The notes beneath the pieces were generated by a model, which saw only the letters and a program-made list of their open reading frames with translations, had not been told where the DNA came from and did not search any database. Shown one piece after another: positions 7,984-17,622 of a DNA stretch of 25,664 nt (position 1 is its first letter; each line of letters begins with the position of its first letter). A program made the translations under genes and the position numbers. The DNA comes from a virus (lineage: Duplodnaviria > Caudoviricetes), in IMG/VR virus record IMGVR_UViG_3300036760_000357, positions 1 to 25,664 of that record. The stretch is one strand, 5' to 3'.

Positions 7984-8256
7984 TTACCGTTCCTTTATCA
8001 AGATCCAGATCGACCGAGTGGCAACTCGGCCCTGGTCAGTTGTGATTCGGCATCTTACATAATGTTTCCTCACAATGCCACCAGAGAGCCGTGCTGTTAC
8101 CGTGGTATCGTCTGCGGTGGATTCATCCAGGCTAATATCATCGCCGATTAGAATAATTTTATGTTCAGAGATTATCTCCCCATCGGCCAGAAAACTGCTC
8201 CAATCCCAGGTGTAATAATCAAGCACGTCTTTAGGATCTTTTATATATTTACGCAT
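7984..8256 (-). CDS. Small virion protein, fibre-adaptor-like
   Basis: 90 aa with 'KDPKDVLDY.WDW..L...E.I', 'LSGG' and 'CRITT..GR' motifs, as seen in small phage proteins that follow fibre genes. Confidence 0.55.
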   Translation of the reverse strand: MRKYIKDPKDVLDYYTWDWSSFLADGEIISEHKIILIGDDISLDESTADDTTVTARLSGGIVRKHYVRCRITTDQGRVATRSIWILIKER

Positions 8257-9913
8257 CGTTCACCTTATGATTTGAAACAATCCTGATAATCCGGTCCTCC
8301 AGATCGATGAATGTATGGTGGTCTTCCAGATCGATGAATATTTGACGGTCTGGCGGCGCAATCGTATGAGAAATCATCTTGATTTCAGGCCGGCCCAGGA
8401 TGGGAATGCCGGATATAAGACCGGTTGTAATAAGAGCATGTAACTGCCCTAAAAATGGATTATCGATCCCCGGCGCTGTAACCGTAATACCCACGGCGCC
8501 CAGAATATGGATCTGGCTCAATGTAGATGCATCCATCACGGGTATACCAGTCGTGATACCGTTAGCAGTCAGGTAATCCACACCTTCTTCGATCTCAGCC
8601 AGCACGGGCATCCCCAAGGATGCTGCACCCGTGACGTTGCCAACCGCGGTTAGTACATGCGTCTGAGTAATGACAGGTGTTCCAATGTTGGCTGCACTGG
8701 TTGTGATACCAATTGCTAATAGATCATGTGTCTGGCCGATGGTAGATGCACCAAATACTGGCGCGCCGGTAACAAATCCAGATCCGATAAGTGCATGGAT
8801 CTGATTTAGATTAGGTTCATCTACGCTTGGTGTCCCTGCAGTGATACCTGTAACTGTCAGATTATGGATTTGTCCAATGGTTGGGCTTCCCAACGTTGGC
8901 ATTCCGGCATCAATCCCATTGGCTGTCAGCGCATGGATTTGCCCTAAAACAGGCATTTCTATTGTTGGCGCTCCTGCTGCCACTCCAGATGCAGTCAGAA
9001 CATGGTTCTGCCCGACTGCTGGCGTTTGCATTGTTGGAGCATCTGCCGTAATCCCTATCCCTGCCAGCACATGAACCTGCCCTATGTCTGGGATTTCTAA
9101 TGTTGGTGTCCCTGTATCAATCCCAATAGCAGTTAATTCATCCTCATTGGCAGCTTCTTGTAACTCAGGCGTTCCTAAGGTCGGGGTTCCAGACGTTACT
9201 CCGGTTGCTACAAGATCATGAATCTGCCCAATCGCCGGCGTGTCCAAAGTTGGAACCCCGGCATCAACTCCGGTAGCTGTTAGAGCATTTATCCCGACAA
9301 AGTTGCTGGTTGTAACTGTGTTGGAACTGCCTACTGCCAGATGCGTATCGGAATTGGCATTGGAGCCTGCTCCATCTAGTTGATGCGCTATTTGGATAAA
9401 AAGATATTCATTGGTAAGTGTGTCCGCTGCACCCGGCGACCACGTGACCGTGATTGTCTGGAAAGCTGAATTAGCCAGGTTGACATATTGCGTGGTCGTG
9501 ATCGTCGCCCCGGTCAATTCGGTCGGGTTGGATCCATTTGCATTGACACTTTTCCAGATGCGGATACGCAATATGCCATCATGTGTGGAAGTGGAGCGTG
9601 TCTCACCTTCTACCTGAAAAGATAGTGACCAGTTGGCATTGGCAAATGTACCATTGATCGTATTCTCGCTGCGGAAGCAATCACCCAGGGTATTATCTGG
9701 AGCGCCGTCCGGCTGCACGGGTGTGGTCAGATGCGCTGAGCTTGCCCGCTCGGTCTGGCTATCCATGCGGGCATAGCGTGTGGCAGCCAGTGTACCCACC
9801 ACCCAACCGGTCGATATACGCACTTGACTAGGAGGCGAACCACCATCCTGTAAAGAAAGATGATTCGATCCCGCAGCCAATGCATCTTTCAGATAAAAAG
9901 TTTTCGCCGTCAA
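8249..9913 (-). CDS. Fibre-like virion protein with 13 x ~23-aa repeats
   Basis: 554 aa, TTG start with AAGGA SD. An N-terminal ~205-aa beta-rich domain is followed by repeats QxHxLxAxGIxxGxPTLxxPxIG and a short C-terminal anchor. Confidence 0.7.
   Translation of the reverse strand: MTAKTFYLKDALAAGSNHLSLQDGGSPPSQVRISTGWVVGTLAATRYARMDSQTERASSAHLTTPVQPDGAPDNTLGDCFRSENTINGTFANANWSLSFQVEGETRSTSTHDGILRIRIWKSVNANGSNPTELTGATITTTQYVNLANSAFQTITVTWSPGAADTLTNEYLFIQIAHQLDGAGSNANSDTHLAVGSSNTVTTSNFVGINALTATGVDAGVPTLDTPAIGQIHDLVATGVTSGTPTLGTPELQEAANEDELTAIGIDTGTPTLEIPDIGQVHVLAGIGITADAPTMQTPAVGQNHVLTASGVAAGAPTIEMPVLGQIHALTANGIDAGMPTLGSPTIGQIHNLTVTGITAGTPSVDEPNLNQIHALIGSGFVTGAPVFGASTIGQTHDLLAIGITTSAANIGTPVITQTHVLTAVGNVTGAASLGMPVLAEIEEGVDYLTANGITTGIPVMDASTLSQIHILGAVGITVTAPGIDNPFLGQLHALITTGLISGIPILGRPEIKMISHTIAPPDRQIFIDLEDHHTFIDLEDRIIRIVSNHKVNDA
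8293..8339. repeat. 20-bp direct repeat, 27-bp period (FIDLED twice)
   Basis: ggtcctccagatcgatgaat (8293-8312) and ggtcttccagatcgatgaat (8320-8339), 19/20 identical. Confidence 0.85.
8378..9295 (-). repeat. Degenerate 69-bp (23-aa) coding tandem repeat, 13 units
   Basis: Units include QIHDLVATGVTSGTPTLGTP, QNHVLTASGVAAGAPTIEMPVLG, QIHALTANGIDAGMPTLGSPTIG and QLHALITTGLISGIPILGRP. Confidence 0.85.
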
Positions 9914-9940
9914 ATCAATCCTTTCTTTTGAAGGATTGAT
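9914..9940 (-). promoter_or_regulatory. Perfect 10-bp inverted repeat covering the fibre-gene SD
   Basis: mRNA reads AUCAAUCCUU-caaaaga-AAGGAUUGAU-UUG(start). The 3' arm contains the SD. Confidence 0.6.
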
Positions 9941-9969
9941 ATTGTCTTATTGGGTTCACTATCAGTCCT

Positions 9970-10344
9970 TTAAGCCGGACCAGGGATGCCAATATCGAAG
10001 GCCGTCAGCGTGAACACGTTGCCATCCGTAACCAACTGTCCGGCGGACAATAAACCTGTTGCGCATAAGATGCTGCTGCCATCCGTGATCGCCCAATATG
10101 TTGCAGTGTTCGTTTCGGTAACTGTTCCATTCGTGATCGCGGGGACTGTTACCTTGCGCCCGCTGGGAGTTCTGGCTCCCGGCGCTCCAATGGTCAAACC
10201 GGTCTTGTTACCTGCACTCTTATTGGCATCTGTTACCGCCTGGGAATAGGTGGTTGCCTCACCGATCGTGATATCCAGGCGTGTGCCGTTGGTCACCAGC
10301 CATTCCAAACCTTTATCCAATACATTTTGGTTTAGATAAGACAT
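9970..10344 (-). CDS. Small beta-rich virion structural protein (first gene of the fibre module)
   Basis: 124 aa, Thr/Gly-rich ('GTVTETNTATYWAI', 'VTDGNVFTLTAFDI'), with an AAGGAG SD. Confidence 0.65.
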   Translation of the reverse strand: MSYLNQNVLDKGLEWLVTNGTRLDITIGEATTYSQAVTDANKSAGNKTGLTIGAPGARTPSGRKVTVPAITNGTVTETNTATYWAITDGSSILCATGLLSAGQLVTDGNVFTLTAFDIGIPGPA

Positions 10345-11051: not shown

Positions 11052-11458
11052 CAGCTGCCAACCCCCGTCCAGAACCCATCGATGGTCAGCGACACGGAGA
11101 TGGTCGCCTCGCCCTGATCAGGAAAGGATTCGCTGATCGAGTCGATCTTGGCTTCGACCGTCTCGATAACCACGCCGGCTTCCTCACGCGCCACCAGGAT
11201 CATCTCACCATCCCGGTTGGCATTTTTGAGTGCCTGGTAGGCAACATCATTCGGCACATATAGCGCATCCAGTGAGATCGTTCCCGAATAGCGCCCGGGT
11301 AACACACGCTGCGCGCGGCTATCCTTGCTCGATATATCGATCGTATCCGTCGACTCTTCGAGCGTCGCATCCCGCTGGCTGCCTACGATCGAGTAGGCCG
11401 GCACTCCCGGTGTTCCCGTGTTTGCCAGGATTAATAGATCTGTCCCATTCATTGCCAT
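11051..11458 (-). CDS. Major tail (tube) protein, TP901-1-like
   Basis: 135 aa with 'GTDLLI...GSQRDATLEESTDTIDISSKDS...LPG...ISLDAL' motifs. Confidence 0.88.
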   Translation of the reverse strand: MAMNGTDLLILANTGTPGVPAYSIVGSQRDATLEESTDTIDISSKDSRAQRVLPGRYSGTISLDALYVPNDVAYQALKNANRDGEMILVAREEAGVVIETVEAKIDSISESFPDQGEATISVSLTIDGFWTGVGS

Positions 11459-11878: not shown

Positions 11879-12231
11879 TTTCCCGCCAAAAGCGCTACGA
11901 TCTTGGCTGCATTCATAAACACCGCCGGTCTCAGAAATGGGTGCGCTGGCCACTTCTTCGTGCCTATCTCGATGTAGAAACCGTGACGCCGTGATGTGCT
12001 CGAGGGTCTCACACCGACGTTGATGACCACCTCCTTCGGCTTTACGATCACTTCATAGCTCAACAGGCGTGCAACATATCTGTTGCGGTAGGCTTCGCCC
12101 CATTTTGGATCCTTGATCGCCAGCAGGCGTTGCCTGGCGTCATTTTCCACGAACTTACCCACGATCTCTCCGTTCTCGGCCAGGTCGGAGATCAGCTTTT
12201 TCTTGAATTCATCCGGGTCCCATTTCAACAT
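11875..12231 (-). CDS. HK97 gp10-like neck protein
   Basis: C-terminal 'YIEIGTKKWPAHPFLRPA' matches the E.GT.kmpa.PFLRPA signature. Confidence 0.85.
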   Translation of the reverse strand: MLKWDPDEFKKKLISDLAENGEIVGKFVENDARQRLLAIKDPKWGEAYRNRYVARLLSYEVIVKPKEVVINVGVRPSSTSRRHGFYIEIGTKKWPAHPFLRPAVFMNAAKIVALLAGK

Positions 12232-12584
12232 CAGCTACCTTCCTCTTCGCGTGATACTTCGGGTTGGCGTTCGCGGCAATCGATCTCCAGGTGCTCGCCT
12301 GCCTTGGATGGCTCACGTTTGGCGTCCACTTCCACCAACAAGCCACCATAAGAGAGCTTGTCTCCTCTCACCACGTCCTCACTCGCCAGACAATAAAATA
12401 CGTGCGTGATCACCCGTTCCTCCAGCATGGCCACTTCCCGCTCGCTCGATGATGCTGGCCGGATCCGCCCTCGTACCGGGTCGAGATCTATCTCATCGAT
12501 CGGCCAGCCACCCTGCCCGTCTGGGGTGCGTCGACGGCCGGTGTGAATGAAATCATGGTTGAGCAGGCTCTCGAAGATGGTCAT
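12231..12584 (-). CDS. Head closure (stopper) protein
   Basis: 117 aa with 'R.PDGQGG', 'THVFY' and 'HLEIDCRE' motifs. Follows the adaptor gene. Confidence 0.8.
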   Translation of the reverse strand: MTIFESLLNHDFIHTGRRRTPDGQGGWPIDEIDLDPVRGRIRPASSSEREVAMLEERVITHVFYCLASEDVVRGDKLSYGGLLVEVDAKREPSKAGEHLEIDCRERQPEVSREEEGS

Positions 12585-13189
12585 GGCTTGATCCGGTATT
12601 TATTCAATATATCCTTTTCGCTCAGCAATAGCATCCGTGCTGCCGAAGCGCCCATGATGCCCTCCCCAGCTCCACCACTTTCCGCTTGAAAAGCTACAGA
12701 GAAATCGCCCAGGCTCTTCGAAGCCACACCCATGAGTCCATCGCTGTCGGCTGCCCGCAATCCGGCCTGGTAAGCCCGGCTGGCTGCCCGTGTGCACACT
12801 GCCACAATATCATCTGGAATATCTGTATAACCATGTGAATAAGTGATCGTGATGTTTTGGATGCCGATCGACCATCTCTTCCCGATGCGATGCAGGATGC
12901 CATGCTGTCCGAGTTTATAATCATCGCCCTGGGTCAATGTCACTCCATCCTCGATCACTTTGGTTACCTCCAGTACCGGCAGTTCGGGCAGGAATAAGCG
13001 CGATCCGCCGGAAGAGTCCAGCGTGATCACATCGTCATCTATCTGCTCCAGGTATTGCCGGGTGTAATTGCGGATGGCAGCTGAAGCCTCGGTCAGCGCA
13101 CTCGCGGTTGCGATGATCTGTAATGTCTTATCGATTTCGATCTGCAAGAAGGATTCAACATCCTCTACCGTGGCAAAGTCAGCCATCAT
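12581..13189 (-). CDS. Head-tail adaptor (connector) protein
   Basis: 'FATVEDV...ASAAIRNYT...ITYSHGY..IPDDI...SKSLGDFSV.F...E..IL.KYR' pattern. Confidence 0.85.
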   Translation of the reverse strand: MMADFATVEDVESFLQIEIDKTLQIIATASALTEASAAIRNYTRQYLEQIDDDVITLDSSGGSRLFLPELPVLEVTKVIEDGVTLTQGDDYKLGQHGILHRIGKRWSIGIQNITITYSHGYTDIPDDIVAVCTRAASRAYQAGLRAADSDGLMGVASKSLGDFSVAFQAESGGAGEGIMGASAARMLLLSEKDILNKYRIKP

Positions 13190-13586
13190 TTCTCCAAGCC
13201 TCGATCGCCTGCATAGTCCTGGGCGTCACGTAACCCAACGTCCCAGTCTGGCGCAGTTGCTCGAATGTAGTGATTCCGTTGGCCGCCAGCGCCCGTGCTG
13301 TGGCCGGACCAACCCCCGGGATACTGGTGAAGTCATCCGCAGAGGGTGCGCTTTCCGCTTCGGGTTCCTGTGGAGCGGTTTTATTCTCCACGGGAAGACG
13401 CATCTTGTTTTGCATAGCAGCCGGTGACTTCGCCTTCGCCGGCAGCTTCCCTTGTGCGATGGCATCGGCTTCATACATTTTCACGAACTGGCCGCGCCCG
13501 ATCGGTATTTTTACTAATGGTCCTTTTTTCATATTAGCCTCCTGTGTGACCAATGGCCACTTGTTTTTATCGGTTAGTATTGCCAT
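13179..13586 (-). CDS. Small post-capsid protein with a helix-hairpin-helix domain
   Basis: HhH 'DDFTSIPGVGPATARALAANGITTFEQL', Pro/Ala/Lys linker with NK..NK. A second possible start at 13532 has an AGGAGG SD. Confidence 0.75.
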   Translation of the reverse strand: MAILTDKNKWPLVTQEANMKKGPLVKIPIGRGQFVKMYEADAIAQGKLPAKAKSPAAMQNKMRLPVENKTAPQEPEAESAPSADDFTSIPGVGPATARALAANGITTFEQLRQTGTLGYVTPRTMQAIEAWRNDG

Positions 13587-14932
13587 TATTTAACTCTCCT
13601 ATATTGTTTGAAAGTTGCCCGCACGCGTTCCTCATCACCCTTATGGCATTTCACGAAGCGCCCTGGCTCCAGCTCCACTTGGACCAATGGCAGTATGGGG
13701 ACCATAGGAACTCCCCGTCGCCCATGAACGATGATCGCACTTCCAATGTGCTTACGTGCCGCCCGGGATGCAAACCGGTGATATAACATATAGGCACCTT
13801 GCGGACCCCGGCAATTCCAGGTGTATGGTACGTTCAGGAAAAGCACCTCCGATCGTAGCAATGCCCGCAAGAGTGCGATCTGCTCATCCCAGCCTTTATA
13901 TTTCTGCCATTCCTCGCTCCATAGCTCGAATAGCCGTTTTGTGGCTTCATTCGTCTTCCAGAACATCATTCCGGAGTTGTGGTACAGGATGTGCGGCGTT
14001 TTTAGCCAGGCTGCGGTCTTGGAGGCCTCCGTGCGATTATCCTGGAAGGTTGCCGCCAGGCTGCGCGTCTCGGCTTCTGCTATCACGAAATCCCATTTCT
14101 CCAGCAGGTCGAAGCCTATGGCAGGTGAGATCTTGAATTCGGTCTCCGCATCCACGTATAATGTCTGCTCGAACGGACTGATCCCAGCCAGCAATGGTTT
14201 CACCCGCCCGGCCTTGAATCCGAATAATGTCGAGCTGGTGAATGGGTCCACGCAGCATGTGTGCGTTGCCACCAGTTTATGATCTGCAAAATGCTTCACT
14301 GCCTGGTCATCTCCCACTACCAGCACGGGCATGCCTGGCTCGTGCTTCCACAGGGATCGCATGCTGGCTTCAGCCTCCCGGATCGCCGGGTCGCCCCAGC
14401 ACATGTAGATCACCCCTCTGCTCTTTGGTTTTGGTCTTGGAATTGGCTCCGTGAGCAGCCATAATCCGCGTGGATCCTTCGCTTTTTTCGGCGGATGTAG
14501 AACGGTAATAGAATGATAATAATTCCTCGCCGGTGCATAGCGTTCCCGTCCGGAATCGTGTAGGATCGCTGCCCCTCCCGTATTGAGCAGCTCCCGCGCC
14601 ACATCCAGGCACCGCACCCGGTGCCTCCCATCCACGATGATCAGGTCGAACGTGCCCACATCCTCCGCTTTCAGCTCGTGGTAAGCCGGGTAATCCAGCT
14701 GGAGCAACGTCACATTAACTGTTGTCTTGCCTTTCAGCGCCTGGAAATAATCCGGGTTGTGCTCCACCGACAACCACTTTATATCCGGGAATAACTTTGG
14801 CCAATACAATGTCGATCCTCCCGCACCCCATTCCAGCACCCGGGTTGGCTTGCGCTCCTCGAGCACAGCGCACAGCGCCTCGATCTCTGGCTTATCCATC
14901 ATCGGGTAGGGTTTCAGCTCGATGTTAGCCAT
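13586..14932 (-). CDS. Class I SAM methyltransferase fused to a GT-A glycosyltransferase
   Basis: Likely start MANIELK at 14932 (GGAG SD). N-half: VLEWGAGGST, SVEHN, FDLIIVDG, ILHD. C-half: GVIY, SPFEQTLYVDAETE, NSGM, DEQIALLRAL, TWN. Confidence 0.82.
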   Translation of the reverse strand: MANIELKPYPMMDKPEIEALCAVLEERKPTRVLEWGAGGSTLYWPKLFPDIKWLSVEHNPDYFQALKGKTTVNVTLLQLDYPAYHELKAEDVGTFDLIIVDGRHRVRCLDVARELLNTGGAAILHDSGRERYAPARNYYHSITVLHPPKKAKDPRGLWLLTEPIPRPKPKSRGVIYMCWGDPAIREAEASMRSLWKHEPGMPVLVVGDDQAVKHFADHKLVATHTCCVDPFTSSTLFGFKAGRVKPLLAGISPFEQTLYVDAETEFKISPAIGFDLLEKWDFVIAEAETRSLAATFQDNRTEASKTAAWLKTPHILYHNSGMMFWKTNEATKRLFELWSEEWQKYKGWDEQIALLRALLRSEVLFLNVPYTWNCRGPQGAYMLYHRFASRAARKHIGSAIIVHGRRGVPMVPILPLVQVELEPGRFVKCHKGDEERVRATFKQYRRVK

Positions 14933-15560
14933 TAGGCGCTCTCCCAATCCGGTCTTCATGCTCACCGGACAGTTTTCTCCGGAATGCGATCGTGAAGTCC
15001 CGTTGTCCAATTAATTCCCATCTCGGGTCATTCCCATCCCGCTCCTTACACCACCATTCGGTTACTGCCTGGCATACACCGGTGATCGATGGAAAGAACA
15101 TATCATGCAGTGCAACACATCCTCCTATTTTGATGAGAGGGGTCCAATTGATTAGATCAAACATCACTGACAAATAGCCATGATGCGCATCAATAAAGAG
15201 CAGCGCAATCTCTTGATCATGCGGATATATTGTTATCGCTTCATTGGTTGTCATGGCCAGTAAAGTCGGCGGTGTCAATCCAATCTTTTTTAAATTTTTT
15301 TGCCACCTTTCAGGTGTGGCAGCCTTGCGGTCATTTGGCATCGCCGTAAATGCATCCACGGTCGTTAGCTGTGCATGAAAGATCCTCGACGCTTGCAGCA
15401 TAATCGATGTGGTCCGCCCCATCCAACAGCCCAGCTCCACCAGCTTTCCTCTCCGTCGTGCCAACTTATACAAGAAAGCCGCCTCCTGCCTCCGGTATAA
15501 GCCTGGGATACTGAAAGATTTATCCAGCGCCATCTTGATCTCTTCAACTGGTACTCTCAT
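14925..15560 (-). CDS. Class I SAM-dependent methyltransferase (Methyltransf_24-like)
   Basis: LVELGCWMGRTT motif I, TTVD, LLFIDAHH.Y and GG.VALHD motifs. Confidence 0.85.
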   Translation of the reverse strand: MRVPVEEIKMALDKSFSIPGLYRRQEAAFLYKLARRRGKLVELGCWMGRTTSIMLQASRIFHAQLTTVDAFTAMPNDRKAATPERWQKNLKKIGLTPPTLLAMTTNEAITIYPHDQEIALLFIDAHHGYLSVMFDLINWTPLIKIGGCVALHDMFFPSITGVCQAVTEWWCKERDGNDPRWELIGQRDFTIAFRRKLSGEHEDRIGRAPNG

Positions 15561-16231
15561 TGCGGCGCTCCGTCCCTGCGTGCCTGGCGGTGTTTGTGAA
15601 AGACGAAAGCAGCTCCAGACCTATGATGTGTGTTCCACGGCGTCCTCATCGGTGCGATCCGCACCGGGTATTGGTGGATCGCCCGCAGCAGTGCCATTTG
15701 GTCGTGCACCTTCCAGCGGCACCATTCTTCGTACCAGGCCGCCATCATCGCTTCCACGTGTTCATTTCTACGAAAGAAGATTACGCCGCTGTTATAGTAC
15801 ATGTGATGCCCTGTGCCCAATACCTTCTTTGTATACGCGACTTCGTCCTGTTTCAAATATGGCCAGTGGTTCTCGATGAAAATGCGGTTCACATCCTGTC
15901 CCAGCACCAGATCGACATAGTTCAAAAGCTCGAAGCCCGCCACCGGCGAGCTCAATATTTCCGTGTCGGCATCCAGGAAGAGTGTCTTTTCGAAAGGTGA
16001 AAGCCGGTACATCTGTGTCTTTTGTGTACGTGCTCCTCGATCTTCCTCGGGATGTAGGATAATATGGTCGGCCTCCTTGAGCGCCGTATCACTCACCGCT
16101 GCAATTGGGAGTCCGCGCATGTGCTGTCTCAATGTCCGCATGCTATTCTGTGCCTGCTCGCGTGCCTTCACGCCATAAGCCACATATAGCACTCCTTTAT
16201 CTGCGATGATCGCCTGCTGTTCGATGATCAC
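15557..16231 (-). CDS. GT-A fold glycosyltransferase (GT8-like / nucleotide-diphospho-sugar transferase-like)
   Basis: GVLYVAYG, SPFEKTLFLDADT (DxD), YNSGVIFF, DQMAL and PWN motifs. GTG start with AGGAG SD. Confidence 0.85.
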   Translation of the reverse strand: MIIEQQAIIADKGVLYVAYGVKAREQAQNSMRTLRQHMRGLPIAAVSDTALKEADHIILHPEEDRGARTQKTQMYRLSPFEKTLFLDADTEILSSPVAGFELLNYVDLVLGQDVNRIFIENHWPYLKQDEVAYTKKVLGTGHHMYYNSGVIFFRRNEHVEAMMAAWYEEWCRWKVHDQMALLRAIHQYPVRIAPMRTPWNTHHRSGAAFVFHKHRQARRDGAPQ

Positions 16232-16290: not shown

Positions 16291-17622
16291 TTAGCTTCCG
16301 CCTGATAGGTCGACCTCCACGAAAGCTGACGGCCTGATCACGCCCATCGCTGCCCGAAGTTCTGCCAGGATGGCAATCATGTTACGGATAAAGAAATCCG
16401 CATGGCTGTCACTCACACTGATGTTAACCTGCTCGCGATCCCATAGCACCATCTTGCGCCAGTTGCCAAGATAGGCTGTACCCTGCGGTAGGAAGAAATT
16501 CTGCACAACCGGAACGCCCCACAAGGTGCGTGGGCCAGGTGTTTGTGGTCCGCCCCAGTAATAGCGTCCCTGCAGATCCTGCAGCAGATCAATCGACTCC
16601 CAATCGGTTGGGTTAAGCACCCAGGCGGTTGGTACCTGTTTTCCGTTGATCAGCAGATTGGTGATTGCCTTGCGCGCCGTGGTGATGATGTCGGTATCGA
16701 AGGCCTGCACCAGGATATTAGCGGTGTTTGCTAGACCGGTGAAGTTCTCACCAGTACCGTTCCCATTGAGCAGCTGGTTTTCCAGCTCTTCTCCCAGATC
16801 TTCGCGCAACTCCTGGTCGATCAAACCGCGTAGCTGCCCAACATCCGAGATTGCCCGCTTGGTTGCCGGGATCCACACCGCAATGGCTTTGACCGGCTCC
16901 TGTACGCGCTCGAACATCATTGCTCCTTCCGGTTTTTCCCCACTCACCTCTCCCGGATAGCCGGTTTTCTCGGTCACGTTGGACTCAGCCACCGGTGCAG
17001 CCTGGGTGACTTGTGTGGTTTGGCGCACGAACTCCACGCTATCAGTAGTCGTGGTGCGCACGCTGATCAGGTCCCGCAAAGTCAACGGGTAGCGCCCCAA
17101 CGGTTCATAGATGCCGGTGTCCTCTGGTGCAATGAATGCACCCGCGCTGATTGCGCTGGCTCCGGTGATCAGGTCCTTGCGGAACAGACCGAAGCGCTTG
17201 AACTCCAGAGGCGGGGAAGAGAGGCCTTTGCGGCTGTCTGCGATATGGCCTCCCGGTGCCACCTGCTTCATCCAATCCTGCCAGGCTTTTGATTTGACGA
17301 ACGCCTCGCCCAGGGTGTTGTACTCCTGTTCGGCCAGGAACTGTGCACCCTTGACCCGGCCATTACCATTGCCGCCCGGTGCATCATCCCCTCTGATCTC
17401 GATGCCTTCACCCAGATTGAGGATGCTTTGACGCATCGCATCGTCATCCTGGATGGTCTTGATCTCGCCCTTCACTTTCTTGGCGTCTTCCAGTAGTCCA
17501 GCTACCTTCTGGCGCTCTTCGGGCGTGAAGTCACGCTTTTCTTTGTCGACCAGGTTGCAAATGTCGCGTGCATCGGTTAAGAATTTTTTCAGGCTTTCCT
17601 GCAGTTCTTTCAAAGTCTTCAT
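16291..17622 (-). CDS. Major capsid protein, HK97 fold, with N-terminal delta (scaffold) domain
   Basis: Likely start MKTLKELQ at 17622 (AGGAG SD). Coiled-coil N-terminus plus 'EKPE', 'QLLNGNG', 'LNP.DW', 'LWGVPVV' and 'FIRN...ELR...RPSAF' motifs. Confidence 0.95.
   Translation of the reverse strand: MKTLKELQESLKKFLTDARDICNLVDKEKRDFTPEERQKVAGLLEDAKKVKGEIKTIQDDDAMRQSILNLGEGIEIRGDDAPGGNGNGRVKGAQFLAEQEYNTLGEAFVKSKAWQDWMKQVAPGGHIADSRKGLSSPPLEFKRFGLFRKDLITGASAISAGAFIAPEDTGIYEPLGRYPLTLRDLISVRTTTTDSVEFVRQTTQVTQAAPVAESNVTEKTGYPGEVSGEKPEGAMMFERVQEPVKAIAVWIPATKRAISDVGQLRGLIDQELREDLGEELENQLLNGNGTGENFTGLANTANILVQAFDTDIITTARKAITNLLINGKQVPTAWVLNPTDWESIDLLQDLQGRYYWGGPQTPGPRTLWGVPVVQNFFLPQGTAYLGNWRKMVLWDREQVNISVSDSHADFFIRNMIAILAELRAAMGVIRPSAFVEVDLSGGS

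Follow-up and report, generated by a model that had tools for sequence, protein, structure and literature searches.

The window analysed here, 25,664 nucleotides (25.7 kb) of the viral record IMGVR_UViG_3300036760_000357, is a fragment of a siphophage genome with an HK97-like capsid, in which two neighbouring genes carry copies of a short β-hairpin. The genes lie on the minus strand in the order terminase, portal, protease, major capsid protein (MCP), a glycosyltransferase (GT) with a DAD motif, a methyltransferase, a methyltransferase-glycosyltransferase fusion (MT-GT), a small helix-hairpin-helix (HhH) protein, head-tail adaptor, stopper and tail genes. We refer to the hairpin copy on the GT tail as T and to that on the small post-capsid protein as S. 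The MT-GT gene starts at 14932 behind a Shine-Dalgarno sequence, and the two genes and their hairpin modules are laid out as follows.

13586..14932, minus strand: MT-GT gene, 448 amino acids (methyltransferase domain, GT-A domain, linker, T module), the last GT of the cluster; Pfam Methyltransf_24 E 0.002, Nucleotid_trans E 1e-6
13646..13690, minus strand: T β-hairpin, MT-GT residues 415–429, defined by profile
13595..13645, minus strand: helix and basic end after the T hairpin, residues 430–446, T-specific by profile, the helix being predicted in a natural fusion
13179..13586, minus strand: small post-capsid gene, 135 amino acids (extension, hairpin, helix, NK motif, HhH), its start overlapping the MT-GT stop
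13476..13520, minus strand: S β-hairpin, residues 23–37, predicted to pair with capsid strand 306–313
13443..13475, minus strand: S helix with invariant Ala42 and Gly46, from alignment and predicted structure

An earlier note, made from this DNA alone, had singled out 19-residue segments at the C-terminus of MT-GT (13634..13690) and near the N-terminus of the small protein (13464..13520); the coordinates, the minus strand, the gapless alignment and the 8 identities in 19 residues are all correct. Taken alone, the likeness of this pair is only suggestive, as its BLOSUM62 score of 46 (34 of 57 bases identical) is reached by 26 of 5000 and 33 of 5000 shuffles, and BLAST among the window's 30 genes returns it at E 0.10. 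A hidden Markov model (HMM) built solely from N-termini of the HhH family, scanned against the 754 six-frame segments of the window, recovers the small gene itself and, at E 4.3e-5, the GT tail; the match after that is at E 1.8. Among 1447 open reading frames (ORFs) the same HMM finds 16 GT tails (15 loci and the window, E 1e-7 to 4e-3), and the first match outside the two families has an E of 1.7. Comparison of a profile of 79 T segments with one of 59 S segments gives a probability of 97.8 and an E of 9e-13. Since the homologue profiles settle what the single pair leaves weak, we accept that T and S are homologous; chance as the source of the likeness is ruled out by the HMM scans and the profile-profile comparison.

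The shared motif had been described as a β-hairpin followed by a helix. The hairpin is indeed common to both copies, but the helices that follow it differ between T and S, leaving as the common part a 15-residue β-hairpin with the consensus LVxVx[IL]xPGx[FY]VK[CM] and one Asp. AlphaFold2 predicts strand-strand-helix for both copies, with a local confidence (pLDDT) of ∼87 for T and 72–83 for S in a natural fusion (12 rows, predicted TM score 0.46) and of ∼90 for S alone. The stand-alone GT paralogue lacks the motif, as the note had observed. Pfam, PHROG and NCBIfam hold no family for the window segments or their short relatives, the ESM Atlas gave no usable match to the module, and PDB sequence searches with it returned nothing below E 0.2. 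Fold searches with the 70-residue model, which is very small for such comparisons, gave nothing significant (PDB by Foldseek, best E 2.7; BFVD, best E 0.19; VIA, best Z 2.0), although proteins of Gordonia phage Mahdia and mycobacteriophage Charlie are among the top BFVD rows. No description of the module, or of a capsid-targeting tail on a phage GT, was found in the literature covered, to which subscription papers including Popovic 2012 and Freeman 2023 largely do not belong; the accessible portions of bioRxiv 2022.09.09.507160, PMC11445458 and the Jabs preprint hold nothing on a hairpin module. The hairpin module is thus real and conserved, and apparently undescribed so far.

T was surveyed across 137 loci, 103 of them distinct; 23 of 25 genome-contig loci (L137–L159) gave weak HhH-only matches and were left out of per-locus counts. 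The tail is carried by 92 distinct GT-domain ORFs, each of which is the last GT of its post-capsid sugar cluster (92/92), while 67 other GT ORFs are without it. A database search with the T profile picked out 64 proteins from 7989 scored candidates, all 64 on the same GT body. The sugar genes of the window that bear on the comparison of tailed and untailed enzymes are these.

15557..16231, minus strand: untailed GT with an intact DAD at 15965–15973, the likely catalytic paralogue
14144..14152, minus strand: DAE in place of DxD in the tailed GT
14925..15560, minus strand: stand-alone methyltransferase of the sugar cluster, Pfam Methyltransf_24 E 1e-14

Pfam Nucleotid_trans is found on two window genes. 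The DxD motif is kept in all 70 untailed GTs scored. Among the 92 tailed GTs this column reads DAD in 9 and DAE in 10, is lost in 72 (of 91 scorable) and is truncated in one. The DxD-less tailed form has a shortened GT-A-like fold (Foldseek E 5e-4) that is nevertheless well-folded. In a quick tree of 130 GT bodies, built from 137 columns and with many open forks, the tailed bodies form one side of a branch with support of 88, which is not decisive, and the DxD-less bodies form a clade with support of 100. T itself is kept across GT bodies that are ∼25–35% identical. In four close relatives of the window (60 hairpin codons), codon changes in the T hairpin are 2 amino-acid-changing and 23 silent; the corresponding figures are 16 and 23 for the linker (p 0.004) and 69 and 240 for the GT body (p 0.13). 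Decay of the DxD motif alongside a conserved T indicates that the tail persists beyond loss of the active site. A search of 50,697 phage records with the pseudo-GT, the one GT used as a query, gave a single match, at E 0.8.

The sugar cluster around these enzymes is highly variable (L004, L015, L017, L172, L196), with GT-B-like, GT2-like, sulfotransferase-like and several methyltransferase-like genes, labelled by reading and not by a family scan; the pair of DxD GT and tailed GT is fixed within it. At L002:2091-5650 a 350-residue reverse-transcriptase-like ORF, a 124-residue ORF and a 444-residue ORF are inserted between MT-GT and the small gene, an insert which resembles a diversity-generating retroelement on reading of the sequence, again with no family scan.

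S is found in a wider setting than T. It comes directly after T in 62 of 92 loci, and by script cut-offs natural GT-T-S fusions occur in 9 database proteins and 6 loci, two sets that may overlap. Of the best 150 of 236 matches to the S profile, 82 have neither HhH nor GT body, and P0309 has an S-type hairpin-helix N-terminal to a methyltransferase that shares 55% identity with the MT domain of the window. MCP, S and adaptor genes are consecutive in L053/L054 and L202, which have no sugar gene, and more distant S-like genes without sugar genes occur in L203–L207, of which L205 (E 1e-8) and L206 (E 2e-7) match PHROG 7530. S-like hypothetical genes are present in 27 cultured actinophage records at weak E-values (0.002 to 10), and in all 8 of the cultured actinophage records examined this gene lies between capsid and adaptor; a profile of the actinophage proteins matches S with a probability of 82 and an E of 1e-5. 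The window small protein has no direct match to PHROG 7530, 4850 or 36760, no direct homologue of the HhH protein or of the pseudo-GT was found in cultured phages, and a search with the L053 protein recovered that phage alone. T, for its part, stands immediately before the adaptor in L198, with neither S nor NK peptide. Among 76 distinct capsid-to-adaptor intervals, 52 have sugar genes, T and S, 14 have sugar genes and T (including L056, really a two-hairpin fusion), one has sugar genes and S (L224, with a degenerate T) and 9 have neither sugar genes nor T; T never occurs without sugar genes. We infer that the hairpin belonged first to S and that T is a copy of it.

The small protein has three further parts.

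13530..13586, minus strand: N-terminal extension, residues 1–19, with predicted contact to the capsid E-loop and a neighbouring subunit; absent from T
13380..13409, minus strand: basic NK...P..NK motif, retained in most loci without the S hairpin, either fused or as a tiny ORF; absent in L198
13191..13337, minus strand: HhH domain, optional in the S family, Pfam HHH_5 E 3e-7

The small gene has two possible starts on the minus strand, Met1 (13586) and Met19 (13532), each with a Shine-Dalgarno sequence, and the Met19 form would be without the extension, like T. In many S proteins, from phages with and without sugar genes, a Cys-rich CPxCGAxxxxCG start replaces the usual extension (for example P0209, P0254, P0265, P0283, P0299–P0301, P0307; L200–L207). 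Where the S hairpin is missing, the NK/DK peptide is either joined to the GT tail or encoded by a separate ORF of 30–50 residues (L012, L082, L088, L092, L102, L107, L109, L110, L115; L073, L076, L091, L099, L101, L129); it has no place in the capsid model described below. A plectin-like repeat identity for the module was rejected: P0186 and P0275, repeat proteins of 3112 and 3970 residues whose repeats resemble those of plakins, match the helix half only, in six stretches each at ∼10 bits a stretch.

A complex prediction, of the kind proposed in the earlier note, was run for the small protein with the MCP, using two copies of MCP residues 160–449 (35-row alignment) and residues 1–70 of the small protein (104 rows). 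The interface score ipSAE was 0.77, 0.78 and 0.77, against 0.00 in all three controls; contacts agreed between runs to at least 88%, with a partner pLDDT of 73. The capsid segments concerned are the following.

16702..16725, minus strand: MCP residues 306–313, the docking strand predicted by the complex model, with Leu310 (32/35 capsid proteins) and Gln312 (33/35) conserved
16894..16929, minus strand: MCP residues 238–249, E-loop by HK97 alignment, part of the predicted interface

Of the 25 contacts with least error, 24 involve hairpin residues 24–38, mostly 33–38 (also 24 and 26), with MCP 306–313, and MCP positions 328, 332 and 442 are also among the surest contacts. The predicted interface takes in small-protein residues 1–19, MCP 238–249 and residues of the second subunit as well. 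By alignment to HK97, the parts of the MCP involved are an A-domain strand, the C-terminal strand and the E-loop, all of which face outward in HK97-type capsids, and a similar target strand is present in actinophage MCPs. The module has no sequence match among solved chains, so there is no sign that a similar complex was memorised. The model predicts that S binds the MCP via the shared hairpin, adding a strand to the A-domain sheet.

The two segments had been suggested to target both proteins to the same partner, procapsid or connector, or to each other. Because each copy occurs without the other, mutual binding cannot be the main role. The two copies being independent, and S persisting where there are no GTs, the partner is likely to be a virion protein. 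The branch with a common partner on the procapsid is supported by this independent persistence, by the predicted placement of S on the MCP through its hairpin and by rare residues shared within a genome. The hairpin positions through which S makes contact in the model are the most conserved ones in T (G in 97%, R in 86%, V in 90%, C in 89%). T and S of the same genome share 30 non-consensus residues, where 16.5 are expected from shuffled pairs (n=61, p 0.0006; L111 left out), and 18 against 9.6 in a smaller set (n=34, p 0.006), which would fit adaptation to one site.

Candidate acceptors for the sugar were sought at the C-termini of virion proteins.

16294..16305, minus strand: capsid C-terminal SGGS, candidate acceptor near the predicted docking site
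11054..11062, minus strand: C-terminal Ser of the major tail protein, a second candidate acceptor

In tailed-GT loci a Ser or Thr ends the MCP in 51 of 64 cases, the tail tube protein in 81 of 82 and the stopper (window gene 12231-12584) in 77 of 94, against 18 of 85 tail completion proteins and 3 of 92 adaptors as controls. The MCP terminates in Ser/Thr in 53 of the 68 loci that are not known to be sugar-less and in 5 of 14 sugar-less ones (p 0.003, the loci not being independent), and the single sugar-less tail tube protein observed ends in Ala. Ser/Thr ends of tail tube, capsid and stopper are a possible glycosylation signal. Interface residue 442 is a few residues short of the MCP C-terminus, whose Ser may be the acceptor; Che8 reportedly uses a C-terminal Ser acceptor site. 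At L003:3744-5591 a 615-residue ORF, the first 130 residues of which match the tail tube protein, lies just before a normal 135-residue tail tube gene.

We consider it probable that the hairpin binds the A-domain sheet of the MCP and that the T copy docks the phage's sugar-modifying enzymes on the capsid. The S hairpin would pair with capsid residues 306–313, beside the C-terminal strand, and S would act at the head as a chaperone or cement, much like lambda gpFI. A copy of the hairpin would have been fixed once on one GT paralogue, which would then have lost its DxD in one large clade. With T binding the same capsid strand as S, the tailed GT may have come to serve as a subunit that targets the DxD-bearing GT and the methyltransferases to their substrate; the docking site would be on the outer capsid face, the C-terminal Ser of the capsid the acceptor and the capsid glycosylated. 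In its boldest form, which we offer more tentatively, a dead GT equipped with the hairpin of an old post-capsid protein aims glycosylation at the phage's own capsid, the hairpin being a portable address of 15–30 residues (GT tail, methyltransferase front) that holds enzymes beside the C-terminal serine, and a function is given to a widespread actinophage gene family.

Several points weigh against such a role. The modelled copy is S, whose N-terminal extension, absent from T, supplies 15 of 26 predicted interface residues, and the T helix differs. The MCP is the one partner modelled with S, and an added strand at the free edge of a sheet is a generic arrangement. The ipSAE mark was attained by 116 of the 157 solved pairs and by 2 of the 215 mismatched ones; for a model with its own alignments and two capsid copies, these figures give only a rough calibration. 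The 8 identities between T and S are not enriched in the interface, as 6 of them fall within the 11 of 19 positions that belong to it (p 0.21). The within-genome signal fades at the strictest de-duplication (6 against 3.1, n=16, p 0.085), and gene conversion could explain the shared residues too. The window's own tailed GT retains DAE and may be active. The Ser/Thr end is stricter in the tail tube than in the capsid, and a capsid tether would not reach the tail tube. The actinophage profile gives no direct match to T (E 0.29), and the census is not random, most loci having been found via HhH protein or pseudo-GT queries and the sugar-less ones sought deliberately. Glycosylation in these uncultured phages is itself deduced from genes.

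The tail might instead serve to fix a dead GT to completed virions as a decoration, for sugar binding or shielding, at the same docking site and with no enzyme recruitment during assembly. A GT-A-like body that stays well-folded in the 72 of 91 tailed GTs that lack DxD would suit such a role, as would a predicted site that includes E-loop residues; yet T is never found without DxD-bearing GTs or methyltransferases in the 76 intervals, and 19 tailed GTs retain DAD or DAE, some of them fused to a methyltransferase, making decoration unlikely in our view. The hairpin could also be an oligomerisation module, T pairing with S or with itself, while the NK peptide tethers the assembly to the head. 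Retention of S without any GT, and of T with a hairpin-less NK peptide (or, in L198, with neither), speaks against this, as does a capsid model which uses the hairpin and in which no NK residue is listed; the tandem T-S fusions, the shared within-genome drift and the absence of the S hairpin from the 9 loci in which T runs directly into the NK peptide would all be expected of it, and we judge it distinctly unlikely. Much the same low probability attaches to a change of partner, with S on the capsid and T on the tail tube, stopper, adaptor or active GT: T has its own conserved helix and no N-terminal extension, and Ser/Thr ends are also found in tail tube and stopper, but the hairpin positions used by S are those best kept in T, drifting together with S. 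That T is a functionless remnant of fusion and splitting between neighbouring genes, which do abut, fuse and split frequently and include a T degenerate in some fusions (L224), is very improbable given its retention across diverged GT bodies while the active site decays and its low rate of amino-acid-changing substitution, significant against the linker if not against the GT body.

Docking by way of the capsid-binding hairpin may be compared with several known systems. GtfB and Cosmc are inactive GT-like partner subunits serving an active GT; here the adaptor role would stem from the appended, predicted capsid-binding hairpin. Phage GTs glycosylate the virions of mycobacteriophages Che8, Corndog and Myrna (PMC12363180 and PMC13445384, in their available portions). 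The window phage likewise encodes GTs, here with methyltransferases, that are likely to modify capsid and tail tube proteins, as judged from genes. Its cluster differs in lying between capsid and adaptor genes and in including one mostly DxD-less GT with a predicted capsid-binding tail. A search with the pseudo-GT, the sole GT queried, gave no match to Che8 gp110 or Corndog gp38. The available portions of PMC12363180 and PMC13445384 describe neither a targeting module nor how phage GTs are targeted to virion proteins, for which the hairpin module, capsid strand 306–313 and the C-terminal Ser acceptor are now named candidates.

Lambda gpFI is encoded directly after the capsid gene. S occupies a like position, between capsid and connector genes, in sugar-less loci and in the 8 cultured records, the window having a sugar cluster inserted upstream of S. 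A capsid-binding part, predicted in S, and an optional HhH domain recall gpFI, which binds the prohead capsid lattice and, non-specifically, DNA (PMC4856287, PMC13595911 and PMC4493119, each in part). No match of gpFI to S was found by Pfam (the window protein, 18 and 8 relatives), PDB sequence or fold, the 70-residue model being too small to exclude a common fold, and no gpFI module copy on an enzyme turned up in the searches made. Membership of S in the gpFI family is thus not shown. The likeness to gpFI, YqbF or Mu gp35 domains, which fold searches did not confirm, remains a lead. Closer relatives are the actinophage proteins of PHROG 7530, 4850 and 36760 (Faith5x5 gp7, Gudmit gp8, Shoya gp6, MichelleMyBell gp7 and others), which share with S the gene position, hairpin, DA-x-x-x-G helix and NK motif, and differ in being annotated as hypothetical, with no sugar genes between capsid and adaptor and no direct match to T. 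The capsid accessory proteins gp4 of Patience and Adjutor are, as far as the accessible part of PMC11965321 describes them, similar to S in being small proteins, unfolded when on their own, and in binding several capsid subunits including the E-loop, as S is predicted to do; unlike S, gp4 is helical and fills a gap through the hexamer.

If correct, the proposed docking predicts capsid binding for an unannotated post-capsid gene in cultured Gordonia, Arthrobacter and M. smegmatis phages, and as a short, portable capsid-binding peptide the hairpin would lend itself to display on HK97-type shells.

As to the host, one relative (L135) lies within a Caldilineaceae genome bin and one homologue is labelled Anaerolineales, so that the hosts of this phage family are likely Chloroflexota; another relative (L136) sits in a Gammaproteobacteria bin. 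Elsewhere in the window, three genes lie between the tail chaperones and the tape measure gene (7984-10344), namely a gp77-like adaptor (Pfam E 7e-18), a 554-residue protein of repeated Gly/Pro-rich units and a 124-residue protein whose homologue is placed after the adaptor gene in L011.

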